Assembly (NCBI GenBank): GCA_964625715.1
Contig: CAZVEF010000004.1
Span: forward strand, 1 to 50,431
Reading direction: 5' to 3'
Length of the DNA: 50,431 bases
From: an uncultured Spirochaetaceae bacterium
GTDB lineage: Bacteria; Spirochaetota; Spirochaetia; DSM-27196; SLST01
Below the pieces are notes generated by a model that worked only from the letters and a program-made list of their open reading frames with translations, did not search any database and was not told the origin of the DNA. Positions 19,300 to 22,750 of the stretch are shown here, one piece after another. How positions within the stretch are numbered: the first letter of the stretch is position 1; the number at the start of each line of letters is the position of its first letter. Both the position numbers and the translations under genes were made by a program.

Positions 19300-19779
19300 G
19301 TGGCAATTGACGTTGAAGCGTACTACAGAAGATACGGTGCGATGGTCCACCGGCGTTGCAGGTTCATGTTGCGCGACGATCAGGCGGCCCTCGACGCGAT
19401 GCAGGACGTCTTCGTCGAGCTTCTGCGAAGGGAGAAGGACCTCGTGCACTCCGCACCTTCGAGTCTGCTCTACACCATCGCGACCAACGTCTGTCTCAAC
19501 CGGATTCGCACGGGGAAACGGCGTCCCGAGACCCGCGACGACGAGATCCTGCTCACCATCGCCGGCGACGACGGCCCGGAGGACCGGACGCTCTCCGGGC
19601 ACTTCCTCGATCGGCTCTTCGCCCGCGAGCCGGAGAGCACTCGGACGATGGCGGTTCTCCACTACGTCGACGGGTTCACGCTCGAAGAGACGGCGCAGCA
19701 GGTGGGTATGTCGGTCAGCGGGGTCCGAAAGCGACTCCGCCGGCTGCGCGCGCGCGGGCTCGAGCTCAAGGACTTGTGA
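19300..19779 (+). CDS. ECF-family RNA polymerase sigma factor
   Basis: Region 2 (A.DAMQDVF, LYTIATNVCLNRIR) and region 4 HTH (LHYVDGFTLEETAQQVGMSVSGVRKRL). Confidence 0.9.
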   Translation: MAIDVEAYYRRYGAMVHRRCRFMLRDDQAALDAMQDVFVELLRREKDLVHSAPSSLLYTIATNVCLNRIRTGKRRPETRDDEILLTIAGDDGPEDRTLSGHFLDRLFAREPESTRTMAVLHYVDGFTLEETAQQVGMSVSGVRKRLRRLRARGLELKDL

Positions 19780-19788
19780 GGTCGCAGC

Positions 19789-20601
19789 ATGAGCGAGAAA
19801 CGTGTACCGGATTTTCTGATCGAACAGTACGTGCTCGGCGAGTTGCCGCCCGAGAAGGCGCGCGAGATCGAGCGATCCGAGCGATTCACCGAGCGGGTTG
19901 CCGAGGTCGAGCGGGATACCGAACGCTTCCTCGAGGCGCATCCCCCGCACGCGTTCGCGCAGCGCATTCGTAACGCCGGCGAGGCGGCCGAGCGGTCGCC
20001 GGTGCGGTCGCCGGCACGCACTCGAGCGGGCGCGGGGCGCACGATCCGTCTTTTGACGTTTGCCGTGCCGGGCGCGGCGGCGGTTCTCGCGCTCGCCTTC
20101 GTTCTCTTCGGCGGGCTCGGCATCGACACCGCACCGGTCGTCGATCCCGACTCGCAGATCCTCCGCATCAAGGGTGCCGAACCCCGAATCTCGGTGTACC
20201 GCTCCACGGGGACCGAGGACGCCGAAGCGCTCGCCGACGGCGACGTCGCCCGACAGGGCGACGAACTCCAGATCACCTACACCGCCTCCGGCCGCGGATT
20301 CGGCGCGATCGTCAGCGTGGACGGTCGCGGTACGGTGACCCTGCACTACCCGCTGACGCCGTCGAGCGAGCCCGCGCTGACGACCGGCGGCGAACAGCGC
20401 CTGCCCTACGCGTACCGGCTCGACGACGCTCCGGCGTTCGAACGCTTCTACTTTGTCACGTCGCGGTCCTCCTTCGAGGTCTCCGAGCTGCTCACCCGTA
20501 TCCGCTCGCAGGCGGATTCGATCGTCTCGAGCCCGGACATCGAGCTTCGCCTCCCCGGTGACTTCGAGGTCGAGGCAATCACGATTCGCAAGGGAGCGTG
20601 A
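19789..20601 (+). CDS. Putative single-pass anti-sigma factor with a DUF4384-like extracytoplasmic domain
   Basis: Directly after the ECF gene. N-terminal IEQYVLGEL anti-sigma-like helix without HxxxCxxC, one TM helix, then GDELQITY...IVSVDGRG.V.LHYP...LDDAP..ERF. Confidence 0.7.
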   Translation: MSEKRVPDFLIEQYVLGELPPEKAREIERSERFTERVAEVERDTERFLEAHPPHAFAQRIRNAGEAAERSPVRSPARTRAGAGRTIRLLTFAVPGAAAVLALAFVLFGGLGIDTAPVVDPDSQILRIKGAEPRISVYRSTGTEDAEALADGDVARQGDELQITYTASGRGFGAIVSVDGRGTVTLHYPLTPSSEPALTTGGEQRLPYAYRLDDAPAFERFYFVTSRSSFEVSELLTRIRSQADSIVSSPDIELRLPGDFEVEAITIRKGA

Positions 20602-20602
20602 G

Positions 20603-22750
20603 ATGCGACGGATCGTTCTCATCGCGCTGACTCTGGTGTCGTTGATCGCCGTCGCAGGCAGCGCTCATCAGGCACCCATTCGCAGATACGGTCTGTTCAT
20701 CGGCGCGAACGACGGCGGGCGCGACCGCGTCACGCTGCGGTGGGCGGTTGCCGACGCCCGGCGTGTCGCGGAGGTCATGACCGAGATCGGCGGCATTCGG
20801 CCGCAGGACGCGTACGTCCTCACCGATCCCACCGCGCGCGACCTCCAGCTCCAGTTCGACCACCTGCGAAGTCGCCTCGAGACAGAGGCTCATCGGGTGC
20901 GCCGCAGCGAGATCGTACTCTACTACTCCGGTCACTCCGACGAATCGGGGCTCATGCTCGGTGAGGATCATCTATCCTACGTCGAGCTGCGGCGCCAGAT
21001 TGACGGCGTGGGGGCCGACATCAGCATCGCCATTCTCGATTCGTGCGCCTCCGGCGCGTTCACCCGTCTGAAGGGCGGCTCGTTCACCCAGCCGTTTCTG
21101 CTCGACGAGGGCTCGGATGTCACCGGCCACGCGTTTCTCGCCTCGAGCAGCGCAGACGAGGCGAGCCAGGAGTCCGATTCGCTCGGCTCGAGCTTCTTCA
21201 CCCACTATCTCGTCAGCGGCCTGCGCGGCGCGGCCGACTCGAGCGAGGACCGAGTCGTCACGCTCGACGAGGTCTACCTCTACGCGCGAGAGGAGACGCT
21301 TCAGCGCACGTTGAACACGTCTGCCGGCCCCCAGAACGCCAGCTTCGACTTCCAGCTCACCGGCACCGGGAGCCTCGTCCTCACCGATCTCTCGGTCGTC
21401 GACGCCGCGATCGTGCTCGACCCGTCGGTCGCCGGGAGGGTCTACGTCTCGCGAGAGATCGGCGGGGTCGTCGTCGAGGTGGAGAAGCGCGAGGGAAAGG
21501 ATCTCACCATCGCCGTGCCGGCCGGCAGCTACGTGCTGACGCTCCAGGGAGGCGAGCGAAACTACGAGCACAGCCTCGTCCTCACCTCCGGGTCGCGCGT
21601 TCCGGTCGCGGGGCGCGACTTCCGCGTCACCTTCCTCGACCGCAACCGCGTTCGCGGTGACGCTGAGCGCGAGGTCGCCCCGCTCAGTCTGAGCGTGGTC
21701 CCGGGCGTCGAGCTCGTCGCCGACGATCCCTACGAGGTCACCGTGTCCCTCGGTCTCATCGGCGCCGATTCGTACCGGGTGCGCGGCGGACAGGCTTCCG
21801 GGATCCTCAGCATCACCAATGAGAACCTGATCGGCGTTCAGCTCGCGGGAGTCGGGAACACCGTCGCCGGGAACGTGACCGGCGTCCAGAACTCCGGGGT
21901 CTTCAACGTCGTCAACGGAGACGCGTTCGGGCTCCAGAACGCCGGCGTGTTCAACCAGATCGACGGACACGGCGGACTCGTACAGAGTGCCGGCGTATTC
22001 AACGTGTCCACCGCGGGCTTCACAGGTCTCCAATCCGCCGGGGTCTTCAACGTCACCGACGGCATGATCAACGGGGCACAACTCTCCGGTGTCTTCAACC
22101 GAGCCCACGCGGTGAACGGCGCCCAGATCAGCCTCGTCAACGTGGGCGGCGACGTGAACGGTGGTCAGGTAGGTCTCGTCAACATCGGCAGGCGCGTCGT
22201 CGGTACCCAGGTCGGTCTGGTCAACATCTCCGAAGAGATGTACGGCGTGCCGATCGGTCTCGTCTCGGTTGTCGAGCGCGGGATCCACGACGTCAGCATC
22301 TGGTGGGAAGGCGAAGACCGGACATGGGTCGGCGTCCAGAACGGCAGCAACATCTTCTACACGCTCGCCTACGCCGGCGTGACGCGCGGGGGCTCATGGC
22401 GCAGACTCGAAGGATTCGCCGTCGGCGCGGGCCTCGGGTTTCGCATCCAGAGCCGCCCGTTCTACGTTGATCTTGACGCCGGATGGAAGAAGGTCAGCGC
22501 GGGAGCCGACCCCGACGAGCGCTTTGCCTCGCTGTTCGACCCGGTGCGCGGCGCGTCGTTTCCGAGCATGCGCATGATGGCGGGATTCGCGATAGGCGAT
22601 GGACTCGGCTGGTTCATCGGCGGGAGCTTCGACGTGTTCGCGTCCGCGACGACCGACACGATCGGCTACTTCGACGAGCGCGGCAACGCGCTCGGCGTGT
22701 CGGGCGCAGCGGACCTCTATCCGACGTTCTTCACGGGGTTCAAGTTCTAG
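20603..22750 (+). CDS. Exported caspase-family (C14) protease fused to GxQ beta-helix repeats and a probable outer-membrane beta-barrel
   Basis: Signal peptide; LFIGAN; His-Cys dyad motifs YYSGH and ILDSC; SSSADEASQE and FTHYL; about 11 GxQ repeats; amphipathic C-terminal strands ending FFTGFKF. Confidence 0.85.
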   Translation: MRRIVLIALTLVSLIAVAGSAHQAPIRRYGLFIGANDGGRDRVTLRWAVADARRVAEVMTEIGGIRPQDAYVLTDPTARDLQLQFDHLRSRLETEAHRVRRSEIVLYYSGHSDESGLMLGEDHLSYVELRRQIDGVGADISIAILDSCASGAFTRLKGGSFTQPFLLDEGSDVTGHAFLASSSADEASQESDSLGSSFFTHYLVSGLRGAADSSEDRVVTLDEVYLYAREETLQRTLNTSAGPQNASFDFQLTGTGSLVLTDLSVVDAAIVLDPSVAGRVYVSREIGGVVVEVEKREGKDLTIAVPAGSYVLTLQGGERNYEHSLVLTSGSRVPVAGRDFRVTFLDRNRVRGDAEREVAPLSLSVVPGVELVADDPYEVTVSLGLIGADSYRVRGGQASGILSITNENLIGVQLAGVGNTVAGNVTGVQNSGVFNVVNGDAFGLQNAGVFNQIDGHGGLVQSAGVFNVSTAGFTGLQSAGVFNVTDGMINGAQLSGVFNRAHAVNGAQISLVNVGGDVNGGQVGLVNIGRRVVGTQVGLVNISEEMYGVPIGLVSVVERGIHDVSIWWEGEDRTWVGVQNGSNIFYTLAYAGVTRGGSWRRLEGFAVGAGLGFRIQSRPFYVDLDAGWKKVSAGADPDERFASLFDPVRGASFPSMRMMAGFAIGDGLGWFIGGSFDVFASATTDTIGYFDERGNALGVSGAADLYPTFFTGFKF
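21785..22282 (+). repeat. Coding tandem repeats of 14-16 aa, consensus GxQxxG(V/L)(F/V)N, typical of a beta-solenoid
   Basis: The 48-nt period is visible in DNA (ccggNgtNttcaac recurring at about 21894, 21942, 21990, 22038 and 22086). Confidence 0.85.

Follow-up and report, generated by a model that had tools for sequence, protein, structure and literature searches.

An ECF sigma factor, an ActD-family anti-sigma-like protein and a secreted caspase-fold protease encoded together in Spirochaetota and Myxococcota: a candidate envelope signalling module

The window analysed here is a whole stretch of 50,431 nucleotides (nt) of DNA from an uncultured Spirochaetaceae bacterium (assembly GCA_964625715.1, contig CAZVEF010000004.1). 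It carries a three-gene operon that encodes a sigma factor of the extracytoplasmic function (ECF) type, an ActD-family anti-sigma-like protein with one transmembrane (TM) helix and a secreted multidomain protease of family C14, hereafter called the caspase protein (Table 1). These three genes probably constitute one functional module in which the anti-sigma and the caspase stand in a direct relationship. We also propose, tentatively and with slightly more doubt than belief, that the caspase is held at the outer membrane, faces the periplasm and acts there as the site-1 protease of the anti-sigma. An earlier note on this DNA had described three tightly coupled genes, with gaps of 9 and 1 nt, for an ECF sigma, a single-TM protein and a secreted C14 protease. 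The same three open reading frames (ORFs) were found here, with 9 nt between the sigma and anti-sigma genes and 1 nt between the anti-sigma and caspase genes, and Pfam, NCBIfam and fold prediction bore out the identity of the products. The source assembly is 82.5% complete in 254 contigs and holds a single copy of each trio gene.

As judged from the sequences compared, the arrangement of the trio is far beyond chance, because it is conserved across genomes. By tblastn, gene order and strand were the same in 29 of 29 loci from other Spirochaetota genomes. When the match tables of 400 other Spirochaetota genomes were compared, the caspase domain was present in 58 and the anti-sigma in 58, and these were the same 58 genomes; with the window's genome added, each count becomes 59 of 401. 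The two genes are adjacent in 57 of them, and in the remaining one (G391) each lies near a contig end. The caspase family counted 1830 matches at E <= 1e-3 among the 8000 candidates scored, and the named homologues came from Spirochaetota, including Salinispira pacifica. Matches to any part of the caspase protein occur in 73 of 401 Spirochaetota genomes and in 52 of 153 genera, 14 of the 73 with the repeat and barrel part only. Stand-alone proteins of about 340-430 residues that consist of beta-helix repeats and a barrel and have no caspase domain were also seen (L005 133-873, L013 3671-4570, L022 261-1031). The caspase gene has one of them as its immediate downstream neighbour in some loci, and in 14 of the 401 genomes these proteins are the sole match.

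A wider scan covered one genome per species with the anti-sigma alignment as seed; it gave more than 596 stretches, 568 confirmed, and 80 loci were kept. According to the record titles, 46 of these belong to Spirochaetota, 22 to Myxococcota, 2 to 'Deltaproteobacteria' and 3 to Aminicenantes, and 7 are other or unclassified. The complete trio is present in 64 loci, the anti-sigma and caspase without a sigma in 6, and the sigma and anti-sigma without a caspase in 6; a further 3 are cut by a contig end and 1 holds the anti-sigma only. The earlier suggestion that the trio is syntenic elsewhere, with myxobacteria as the guess, is in line with these findings in Spirochaetota, Myxococcota and Aminicenantes-labelled records. 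Two apparent fusions of the anti-sigma and the caspase, in G319 and G325, were rejected: one reflected a real stop codon and the other masked bases.

Where act operons of the Myxococcus and Archangium type occur, the module is divided: ActD and the caspase are retained side by side in the operon, the sigma gene sits elsewhere, and what remains paired is the anti-sigma with the caspase. In the locus L073 (Myxococcus sp.), the order is a GGDEF response regulator (ActA), a sigma-54 activator (ActB), an epimerase/GNAT protein, ActD, a 729-residue Peptidase_C14 protein and, at 9170-9736, a TPR protein. The 729-residue protein matches the caspase, sandwich and C-terminal segments of the window protease, and the gene order fits the act operon as described in parts of three papers (PMC4320627, PMC4877007, PMC9765219). 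All six sigma-less loci are of this act type. Five of them are labelled Myxococcota, and the sixth (L071) is labelled Comamonas sp.; it has a GGDEF gene upstream, an ActD homologue, a caspase and the promoter motif described below, with identities that resemble those of Myxococcus loci, and its organism label or assembly may be wrong. The six caspase-less loci, meanwhile, all come from Myxococcota-labelled records (Vitiosangium, Archangium, Myxococcus, Pyxidicoccus), and in four of them (L065, L074, L079 and L098, at about 6870-7610) a TPR gene follows the anti-sigma gene. Since a TPR gene follows the anti-sigma there and the caspase in the act-type locus, the caspase-less loci suggest a duplication with subsequent loss of the caspase gene from one copy.

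Two myxobacterial genomes were checked. Each of them has two full ActD-like genes and one partial one, seven caspase-domain paralogues, and a single sigma orthologue (62-63% identity) that adjoins the second ActD-like gene and is not in the act operon. Each also encodes a protein of about 414 residues that matches only the periplasmic DUF4384-like domain of the anti-sigma (G419:C90:235192-236580 and G420:C1:10092491-10093896). This gene lies directly upstream of another caspase paralogue and forms a second, different DUF4384-caspase gene pair. The act operon of Myxococcus xanthus was reportedly described by Gronewold and Kaiser in 2001, whose actC and actD mutants are said to shift the timing of csgA expression. 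No molecular function of ActD was found in the literature searched.

The sigma factor of the window is a small ECF protein made up of regions sigma-2 and sigma-4 alone. Pfam Sigma70_r2 and Sigma70_r4_2 matched it at 44.1 and 32.8 bits, both above their cut-offs, region 3 gave no match, and TIGR02937 scored 60.9 bits against a cut-off of 42.9. None of the named ECF subgroup models of NCBIfam reached its cut-off. The start codon is most likely the GTG at 19300, because in an alignment with six close relatives both this GTG and the upstream AGGA (Shine-Dalgarno sequence) are kept in all seven sequences.

The region of 200 nt upstream of the predicted sigma start was then compared in 74 sequences (73 loci and the window). 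Enumeration of bipartite words gave 33 occurrences of GTGACA/GTAACA-N16-GTGTT, compared with at most 7 in shuffled controls. A looser pattern of the motif was present 5' of the sigma gene in 48 of the 74 sequences, against a mean of 0.4 and a maximum of 3 in 200 shuffles, and 46 of these 48 have it at a distance of 37-81 nt upstream from the start of the sigma. Positions that the search pattern did not force were conserved as well, namely G at -1 (45/45), G at -2 (36/45) and A three nt after GTGTT (37/45). The motif was found in Spirochaetota-, Myxococcota- and Aminicenantes-labelled loci, and in 7 of 7 loci without an adjacent sigma it stands about 25-90 nt upstream of the ActD-homologue gene. 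We infer that GGT(G/A)ACA-N16-GTGTT would be an autoregulated ECF promoter whose specificity is conserved across phyla, and that in myxobacteria a sigma whose gene lies at another locus would have actD and the caspase gene in its regulon. A simple scan for sigma-70 promoters and terminators gave nothing useful on the plus strand.

In the window's genome the strict motif has 4 sites, compared with about 8 expected by chance (our own estimate, which assumes uniform composition). The count is no higher than chance, so the regulon is unreadable from the count alone. Two of the four sites, both on contig C1, have no convincing downstream gene. One of the four, with the longer spacer of GGTGACA-N17-GTGTT (C111:7005-7032), stands 19 nt before a gene for a 228-residue lipoprotein-like protein (MKTRH...LGAC; G000:C111:6302-6985, minus strand). 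Three of its seven orthologous loci (L120, L121, L122) have the N16 motif at the same place, and the other four are without it. We treat the gene as a candidate for the sigma's regulon; its product has no Pfam family, and its ESM Atlas neighbours are only 'hypothetical'.

The second protein of the trio was modelled with AlphaFold2 (AF2) at a mean predicted local distance difference test score (pLDDT) of 80.6. The model contains four N-terminal helices (residues 8-69), a TM helix at about 88-108, a linker at 108-128 with pLDDT <50 and, as its C-terminal part, a confident beta-sandwich with one helix (133-268). Because positive residues precede the TM helix, the C-terminus would lie outside the cytoplasm. 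The homologue search yielded 925 proteins; entries from Myxococcus, Archangium and Vitiosangium carry the name 'ActD' or 'ActD-like', and the name given by JGI is 'anti-sigma factor RsiW'. Against the proteins named ActD or ActD-like, the comparison gave E values of 6e-39 to 3e-34 with 36-41% identity and 83-100% query coverage, so that the protein belongs to the ActD family by full-length homology. The NCBIfam model 'antisigma' reached 26.7 bits, under its cut-off of 100, and no Pfam anti-sigma family, nor any other Pfam family, matched above threshold. Judged by its modelled architecture, the protein is anti-sigma-like and may be a class I-type anti-sigma of the adjoining ECF sigma.

Its periplasmic domain is best described, from sequence comparison, as a divergent DUF4384-like domain. 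DUF4384 (PF14326) scored 21.6 bits (E 2.3e-4) and stayed below the gathering score of 27, while matches at E <= 0.01 were obtained for 14 of 38 family members, the best at 3.7e-6. A fold search returned only generic Ig-like or macroglobulin-domain matches at Z 8-9. With a profile of the domain, 4179 cluster representatives (50% identity) were retrieved, 1556 of them at E <= 1e-30. Among the 150 representatives listed, most are about 250-300 residues long, none exceeds 327 residues, and the domain is C-terminal in all.

The protease of the trio looks active, because its catalytic dyad is invariant in 65 of 65 homologues and its caspase fold is matched at Z 19.9. The earlier note had seen an intact His-Cys dyad in YYSGH and ILDSC; both motifs are present, and H111 and C148, together with D51 and D146, are invariant in all 65 aligned caspase homologues. 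Among 101 locus-encoded homologues, SGH is kept in 101 and DSC in 99. Pfam Peptidase_C14 (PF00656) matched residues 28-213 at 27.3 bits against a threshold of 21.4, which places the protein in family C14. The AF2 model, built on the 65-sequence alignment, has a mean pLDDT of 88.1 and a predicted template modelling score (pTM) of 0.50. With VIA-align, the matched part (25-265) superposed on Arabidopsis metacaspase 4 (6w8r) at Z 19.9, with a root-mean-square deviation (rmsd) of 2.8 over 205 aligned residues. The entry 4jj7 ('Caspase-3 specific unnatural amino acid-based peptides') followed at Z 19.5, and caspase and MALT1 entries lay at Z 18-19.5. Foldseek returned caspase-3/-6, Yca1 and MALT1 at probability 1.0 and matched no other part of the protease; the model thus has the caspase-hemoglobinase fold. 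The N-terminus, MRRIVLIALTLVSLIAVAGSA followed after the predicted cut by HQ, resembles by eye a type-I signal peptide, and a hydrophobic run of at least 10 residues is present inside the first 40 residues of 61 of the 65 homologues.

The conserved core of the caspase protein comprises residues 1-355 and includes a beta-sandwich. When the sandwich segment alone was used in tblastn, its matches adjoined the caspase match in most caspase-bearing loci. When the profiles of the anti-sigma and caspase families were set against each other, no likeness emerged (probability 0.2), and the caspase's own sandwich is therefore not detectably DUF4384. Downstream of the core, the stretch from residue 395 to residue 550 holds about 10-11 G-x-Q repeats, in good agreement with the roughly 11 reported before, and NCBIfam LA_2272_repeat (NF047436) matched three stretches at 37.1 bits over a cut-off of 25, which assigns the repeats to the LA_2272 family. 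The matched part of this beta-helix (356-586) is closest to the antifreeze beta-helix 3p4g (Z 18.5, rmsd 2.3, 202 aligned) and also resembles HMW1 (2odl, Z 15.2), EtpA (Z 14.9) and antigen 43 (Z 14.7). The beta-helix repeats are absent from at least 11 homologues of full length; in them the sandwich is followed by a Gly-rich region of about 170-250 residues with alternating hydrophobics.

A C-terminal barrel had been suspected in the earlier note, and an 8-stranded barrel of the OmpA/OprF kind is indeed predicted. Eight long strands were assigned at 561-714 (DSSP of the model), as in the small barrels of OmpA and OmpX. The matched part (557-715) aligned with the OprF N-terminal barrel 4rlc at Z 14.8 (rmsd 2.2, 113 aligned), with 3nb3 (phage Sf6 virions carrying host OmpA and OmpC) at Z 12.8 and with PagL, OmpW and OprH in the range of Z 12-13; CarO was matched too. 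In outer-membrane proteins the outside loops are as a rule long and the periplasmic turns short. The barrel connections of the model measure, in order, 3, 3, 11, 2, 19, 3 and 23 residues. Because connections 3, 5 and 7 are long and 2, 4 and 6 short, both barrel termini, and hence the beta-helix and the caspase, most likely lie on the periplasmic side of the modelled protein, and the surface-anchored receptor pictured in the earlier note does not agree with this topology. The protein ends in ...GFKF. The terminal Phe that had been read as a signal for the beta-barrel assembly machinery (BAM) does exist here, but it is no family trait: of the 65 homologues, 23 end in F, 28 in L, 13 in I and 1 in P. 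What is conserved at the C-terminus is a hydrophobic last residue (64/65) together with a hydrophobic residue at -3.

The motif R-x-K-G is common to the anti-sigma linker and a loop of the caspase, and in both proteins it lies where pLDDT is <50. In the anti-sigma it belongs to the poorly modelled segment 108-128 and stands immediately ahead of the folded domain's first strand. Without exception, the 38 sequences compared have R126, K128 and G129, and R.KG occurs in 98 of 108 locus-encoded homologues, with the Lys kept in all 98 and in the 10 printed misses. The corresponding loop of the caspase reads R-L-K-G-G, with residues 157-170 at pLDDT <50; R155 is kept in 64 of 65 homologues, and K157, G158 and G159 in all 65. 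The pattern DSC..R.KG was found in 88 of 101 locus-encoded homologues. Eleven of the 13 printed misses show K-G-G, and for the other two (L028, L092) the printed windows exclude this stretch. In caspases, the intersubunit processing site sits in the loop region shortly after the catalytic Cys. As for specificity, D51 aligned with the Asp of the C-V-N-D motif in metacaspase 4, in a weak alignment (E 0.034), and D146 is taken by us to be an S1 aspartate from its D-S-C motif. Because these two presumed S1 aspartates are invariant and would be C14B-like, the caspase is predicted to cut after Lys or Arg, that is, with a basic residue at P1. According to part of PMC6426788, the S1 aspartates Asp95 and Asp211 of TbMC2 accommodate basic residues, and C14B enzymes cut after Arg/Lys.

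Taken together, these features could describe the following pathway. The ECF sigma would be held at the inner membrane by the ActD-family anti-sigma. The caspase protein would be exported and anchored in the outer membrane by its 8-stranded barrel, with the beta-helix, the sandwich and the caspase domain hanging into the periplasm. An envelope signal would activate the caspase, possibly through a self-cut in the R-L-K-G-G loop, and the caspase would then cut the anti-sigma after the conserved Lys/Arg of its R-x-K-G linker (site 1). An RseP-type site-2 protease would remove the truncated anti-sigma and so free the sigma, which would transcribe its own operon from GGTGACA-N16-GTGTT, plus a small regulon. 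A homologue of the M50 site-2 proteases is encoded in the genome (Peptidase_M50 192.5 bits, G000:C8). Gene content, folds, conservation, co-occurrence, the promoter motif and the shared motifs are results of computation. We infer the periplasmic topology, the cleavage of the anti-sigma by the caspase, every activation step and the P1 specificity; circumstantial support for the cleavage comes from the strict co-occurrence, the R-x-K-G shared by two loops predicted to be disordered and the acidic S1 residues. Prediction of a complex between caspase residues 22-356 and anti-sigma residues 108-270 gave ipSAE values of 0.00 and 0.01, which speak neither for nor against binding. A bolder extension, which we regard as possible but doubtful, is that the caspase self-activates by cutting between the Lys and Gly of R-x-K-G, cuts ActD-type anti-sigmas there as their dedicated site-1 protease, and serves in the same pathway as the ActD branch of the act operon, read by the ECF sigma of a second locus. 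If so, a periplasmic caspase would be linked to the timing of C-signal-dependent development in Myxococcus.

Several points weigh against a site-1 role of the caspase. The R-x-K-G of the anti-sigma lies at the very edge of the folded periplasmic domain and could be structural or the site of another protease, while the R-x-K-G-G of the caspase may be a conserved active-site loop of its subfamily. The shared motif is moreover a post hoc observation, noticed after a search for a shared motif, and the S1 assignment comes from the one weak alignment mentioned above and from known family motifs. The beta-helix is missing in at least 11 homologues, therefore a fixed ruler spanning the periplasm is not required, and the periplasmic topology itself is a reading of the predicted model. 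As to the pairing, 6 of the 80 loci have a sigma and an anti-sigma with no adjacent caspase, and each myxobacterial genome checked has 7 caspase paralogues versus 2 full ActD-like proteins, so that the pairing is not one to one. Nor were any fused anti-sigma-caspase proteins found, including among the 150 periplasmic-domain representatives listed; a search for longer proteins gave one 563-residue protein without a Pfam family.

Some of the same observations would fit a caspase that is an output of the system, namely an envelope effector that remodels or clears periplasmic or outer-membrane proteins, with an anti-sigma that senses through its DUF4384-like domain and is controlled by a DegS/Prc-type protease or by conformation. 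ECF operons commonly contain their own effectors, and the promoter motif puts the caspase gene downstream in a probably autoregulated operon. The surplus of caspase paralogues over ActD-like proteins in the myxobacterial genomes suggests other substrates, the caspase-less loci show that sigma and anti-sigma can be kept without an adjacent caspase, and the lipoprotein gene, the second candidate for the regulon, hints that this regulon concerns the envelope. However, an effector would be expected beside the sigma, whereas the act-type caspase follows the anti-sigma homologue and the sigma is encoded elsewhere. Moreover, presence and absence of the caspase and the anti-sigma match perfectly in the 400 other Spirochaetota genomes, and an effector role leaves unexplained both the shared R-x-K-G and the recurring association of DUF4384 with proteases. 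We consider a pure effector somewhat unlikely.

Co-occurrence and co-localisation, on the other hand, would serve equally well for a caspase that is a non-proteolytic partner of the anti-sigma. Its contact would be the DUF4384-like domain, or else the R-x-K-G linker acting as pseudo-substrate, and it would shield the anti-sigma from other proteases or report the state of the outer membrane, with lost contact as the trigger. An outer-membrane barrel that touches an inner-membrane anti-sigma follows the logic of cell-surface signalling and has analogies in RseB on RseA and in TonB-dependent transducers; according to part of PMC11637429, transducers bind the anti-sigma in the absence of signal and protect it from proteolysis. 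Yet all 65 homologues keep the dyad and the S1 aspartates unchanged, which a pure binding role does not demand, and pseudo-orthocaspases with substituted dyads are described as common elsewhere in part of PMC6426788. We find such a role unlikely. Display of the beta-helix and caspase at the cell surface, like the passenger of an autotransporter, would make the protein an external receptor or protease that signals indirectly to the anti-sigma. The beta-helix does resemble passengers and two-partner secretion (TPS) domains of secreted adhesins (HMW1, EtpA and antigen 43, at the Z scores given above), and NCBIfam names the repeat a 'surface repeat'. Against this, passenger-secreting autotransporter barrels are known to have 12 strands, in classical cases within about 250-300 residues, and an 8-stranded barrel is too small for such export. 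With about 155 residues, 8 strands of the OmpA/OprF/PagL/OmpW type and no autotransporter Pfam family, the window protein is not a classical type Va autotransporter. As the pattern of long and short connections also puts the N-terminus in the periplasm and short family members are wholly without the beta-helix, surface display seems highly improbable. A caspase that acts on the anti-sigma from the periplasmic side remains our preferred, if tentative, reading.

The coordinates of the operon, its parts and its neighbours are collected in Table 1. The diguanylate cyclase gene that diverges from the sigma gene is full-length in only 6 of 109 related loci and was therefore not counted within the module; 8 further loci of these 109 have other GGDEF types near the module, including ActA of the act operon. 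On the other side, the coding regions of the caspase and of the convergent RpoD/RpoS-like sigma overlap, stops included, by 4 nt (22747-22750). Among the ORFs inspected in the operon's surroundings, none was recognised as a CRISPR gene.

Table 1. Features of the operon and its surroundings (window positions; residue numbers refer to the respective protein)
Feature	Position	Strand	Basis or remark
Three-gene operon	19300-22750	+	Sigma, anti-sigma and C14 protease ORFs, co-directional
ECF-type promoter-like motif TGACA-N16-GTGTT (with flanks GGTGACA...GGTGTT)	19233-19258	+	42 nt 5' of sigma start
ECF (group 4) sigma-70 factor, 159 residues	19300-19779 (frame open from 19207)	+	Pfam, TIGR02937
ActD-family single-pass anti-sigma-like protein, 270 residues	19789-20601	+	AF2 model, homology
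R126-I-K128-G129, candidate cleavage site	20164-20175	+	Juxtamembrane periplasmic linker, invariant
DUF4384-like Ig-type beta-sandwich, predicted periplasmic, with invariant Y-x-L-D-D-A-P-x-F-E	20185-20592	+	Pfam sub-threshold, model
Secreted multidomain C14 protease, 715 residues plus stop	20603-22750 (ATG 20603)	+	Pfam, NCBIfam, model
Signal peptide, residues 1-21, predicted cleavage after AGSA	20603-20665	+	Sequence reading
Caspase/metacaspase-fold domain, residues 25-240	20675-21322	+	Fold match, Pfam
Catalytic His111	20933-20935	+	YYSGH (residues 107-111)
Catalytic Cys148	21044-21046	+	ILDSC (residues 144-148)
R155-L-K157-G-G159 loop, candidate autoprocessing or pseudo-substrate site	21065-21079	+	7-11 residues after catalytic Cys
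Beta-sandwich, residues 245-345	21335-21637	+	Model strands; kept with caspase domain in all family members
Beta-helix of ~16-residue G-x-Q/GVFN repeats, LA_2272-type, residues 356-557	21668-22273	+	Fold match, NCBIfam
8-stranded outer-membrane beta-barrel (predicted), residues 558-715	22274-22747	+	Model, fold match
TPR-GAF-GGDEF diguanylate cyclase, 756 residues	16876-19146	-	Divergent from sigma gene
Sigma-70 with regions 1.2, 2, 3 and 4 (RpoD/RpoS-like), 334 residues	22747-23751	-	Convergent on caspase gene
LysM + M23 peptidase	23755-24633	-	Downstream of operon
S9 prolyl-oligopeptidase-family protein	25302-27374	+	Downstream of operon

To our knowledge, bacterial caspase homologues are abundant and few of them have a known substrate or physiological role. 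Candidates for a substrate, its cut site and a reporter promoter come with the present module, as does a relative amenable to genetics, the act locus of the non-pathogenic M. xanthus, so that for one case the role of bacterial orthocaspases can be put to a direct test. Should the caspase prove to be the site-1 protease, anti-sigma proteolysis would gain a new class of protease and a new architecture, with a periplasmic protease on an outer-membrane anchor, and a parallel to the cytoplasmic, CRISPR-linked Csx29-Csx30-RpoE system. If it is only an effector, the module would be a well-conserved but more ordinary ECF envelope regulon.

That sigma factor and metacaspase genes are associated in operons is already known and has been in print, without a mechanism, since 2012. 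Four metacaspase operons of M. xanthus share sigma-70-family factors, and the same structure is reported in Anaeromyxobacter, Haliangium, Sorangium, Ralstonia and Fibrobacter (Asplund-Samuelsson et al. 2012, PMC3501461, in part). The portion of that paper on these operons gives no anti-sigma, topology, promoter, motif or mechanism and does not name spirochaetes for the operon. We found no study of the sigma/anti-sigma/caspase module in the literature, although PMC3501461 may already give its context in operon tables and figures. The terms 'caspase', 'C14' and 'DUF4384' do not occur in the main text of the ECF re-classification (PMC7826278), whose group tables may likewise list context. What is proposed as new here is that a protease of a new class and in a new location would carry out the regulated proteolysis of an anti-sigma; the gene family to which it belongs had been noted before.

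The act operon resembles the window operon in the homology of ActD, in the order of ActD then caspase and in the motif before actD. It differs in having no sigma gene, which the window operon has; according to parts of PMC9765219 and PMC4320627, the act operon has a sigma-54 promoter and developmental control. The E. coli sigma-E/RseA/DegS/RseP system likewise combines an ECF sigma with a single-pass anti-sigma that has a periplasmic domain, and its periplasmic site-1 cut near the membrane, followed by an M50 site-2 protease, corresponds to the order proposed here. DegS, however, is an inner-membrane serine protease, whereas the site-1 enzyme proposed for the window is an outer-membrane-tethered C14 Cys protease encoded in the operon itself. 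In contrast to RseA, the window anti-sigma has a DUF4384-like sensor with no RseB-like protein present, and its cleavage is a proposal. In systems of the FecA/FecR/FecI type, too, the gene of an outer-membrane barrel accompanies those of an ECF sigma and an inner-membrane regulator, and barrel and regulator are believed to meet in the periplasm. But the window barrel has 8 strands rather than the 22 of a TonB-dependent transducer and is without plug, TonB box or signalling domain; it gave no Pfam or NCBIfam match to such transducers, its predicted fold is different, its periplasmic part is a protease, and the anti-sigma is not FecR-like. ECF signalling that bridges the inner and outer membranes through a beta-barrel has been described in part of PMC10927553; in that case the barrel forms a portion of the anti-sigma and a caspase plays no role, whereas the window barrel belongs to the caspase protein.

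The type III-E CRISPR Craspase provides a likeness in logic, as a caspase-fold protease controls an ECF sigma (RpoE) there by cutting a sigma-binding regulator, a cut that is proposed for the window. As described in part of 10.1101/2022.08.17.504292, the caspase-like Csx29 has Csx30 as its substrate, Csx30 binds the ECF sigma, and one Csx30 group has a DUF4384 C-terminal domain. DUF4384 is also fused to proteases elsewhere, including orthocaspases (parts of PMC7475262 and PMC6426788). Craspase is nevertheless a cytoplasmic, RNA-guided TPR-CHAT enzyme, whereas the window protease is predicted to be secreted and anchored in the outer membrane.

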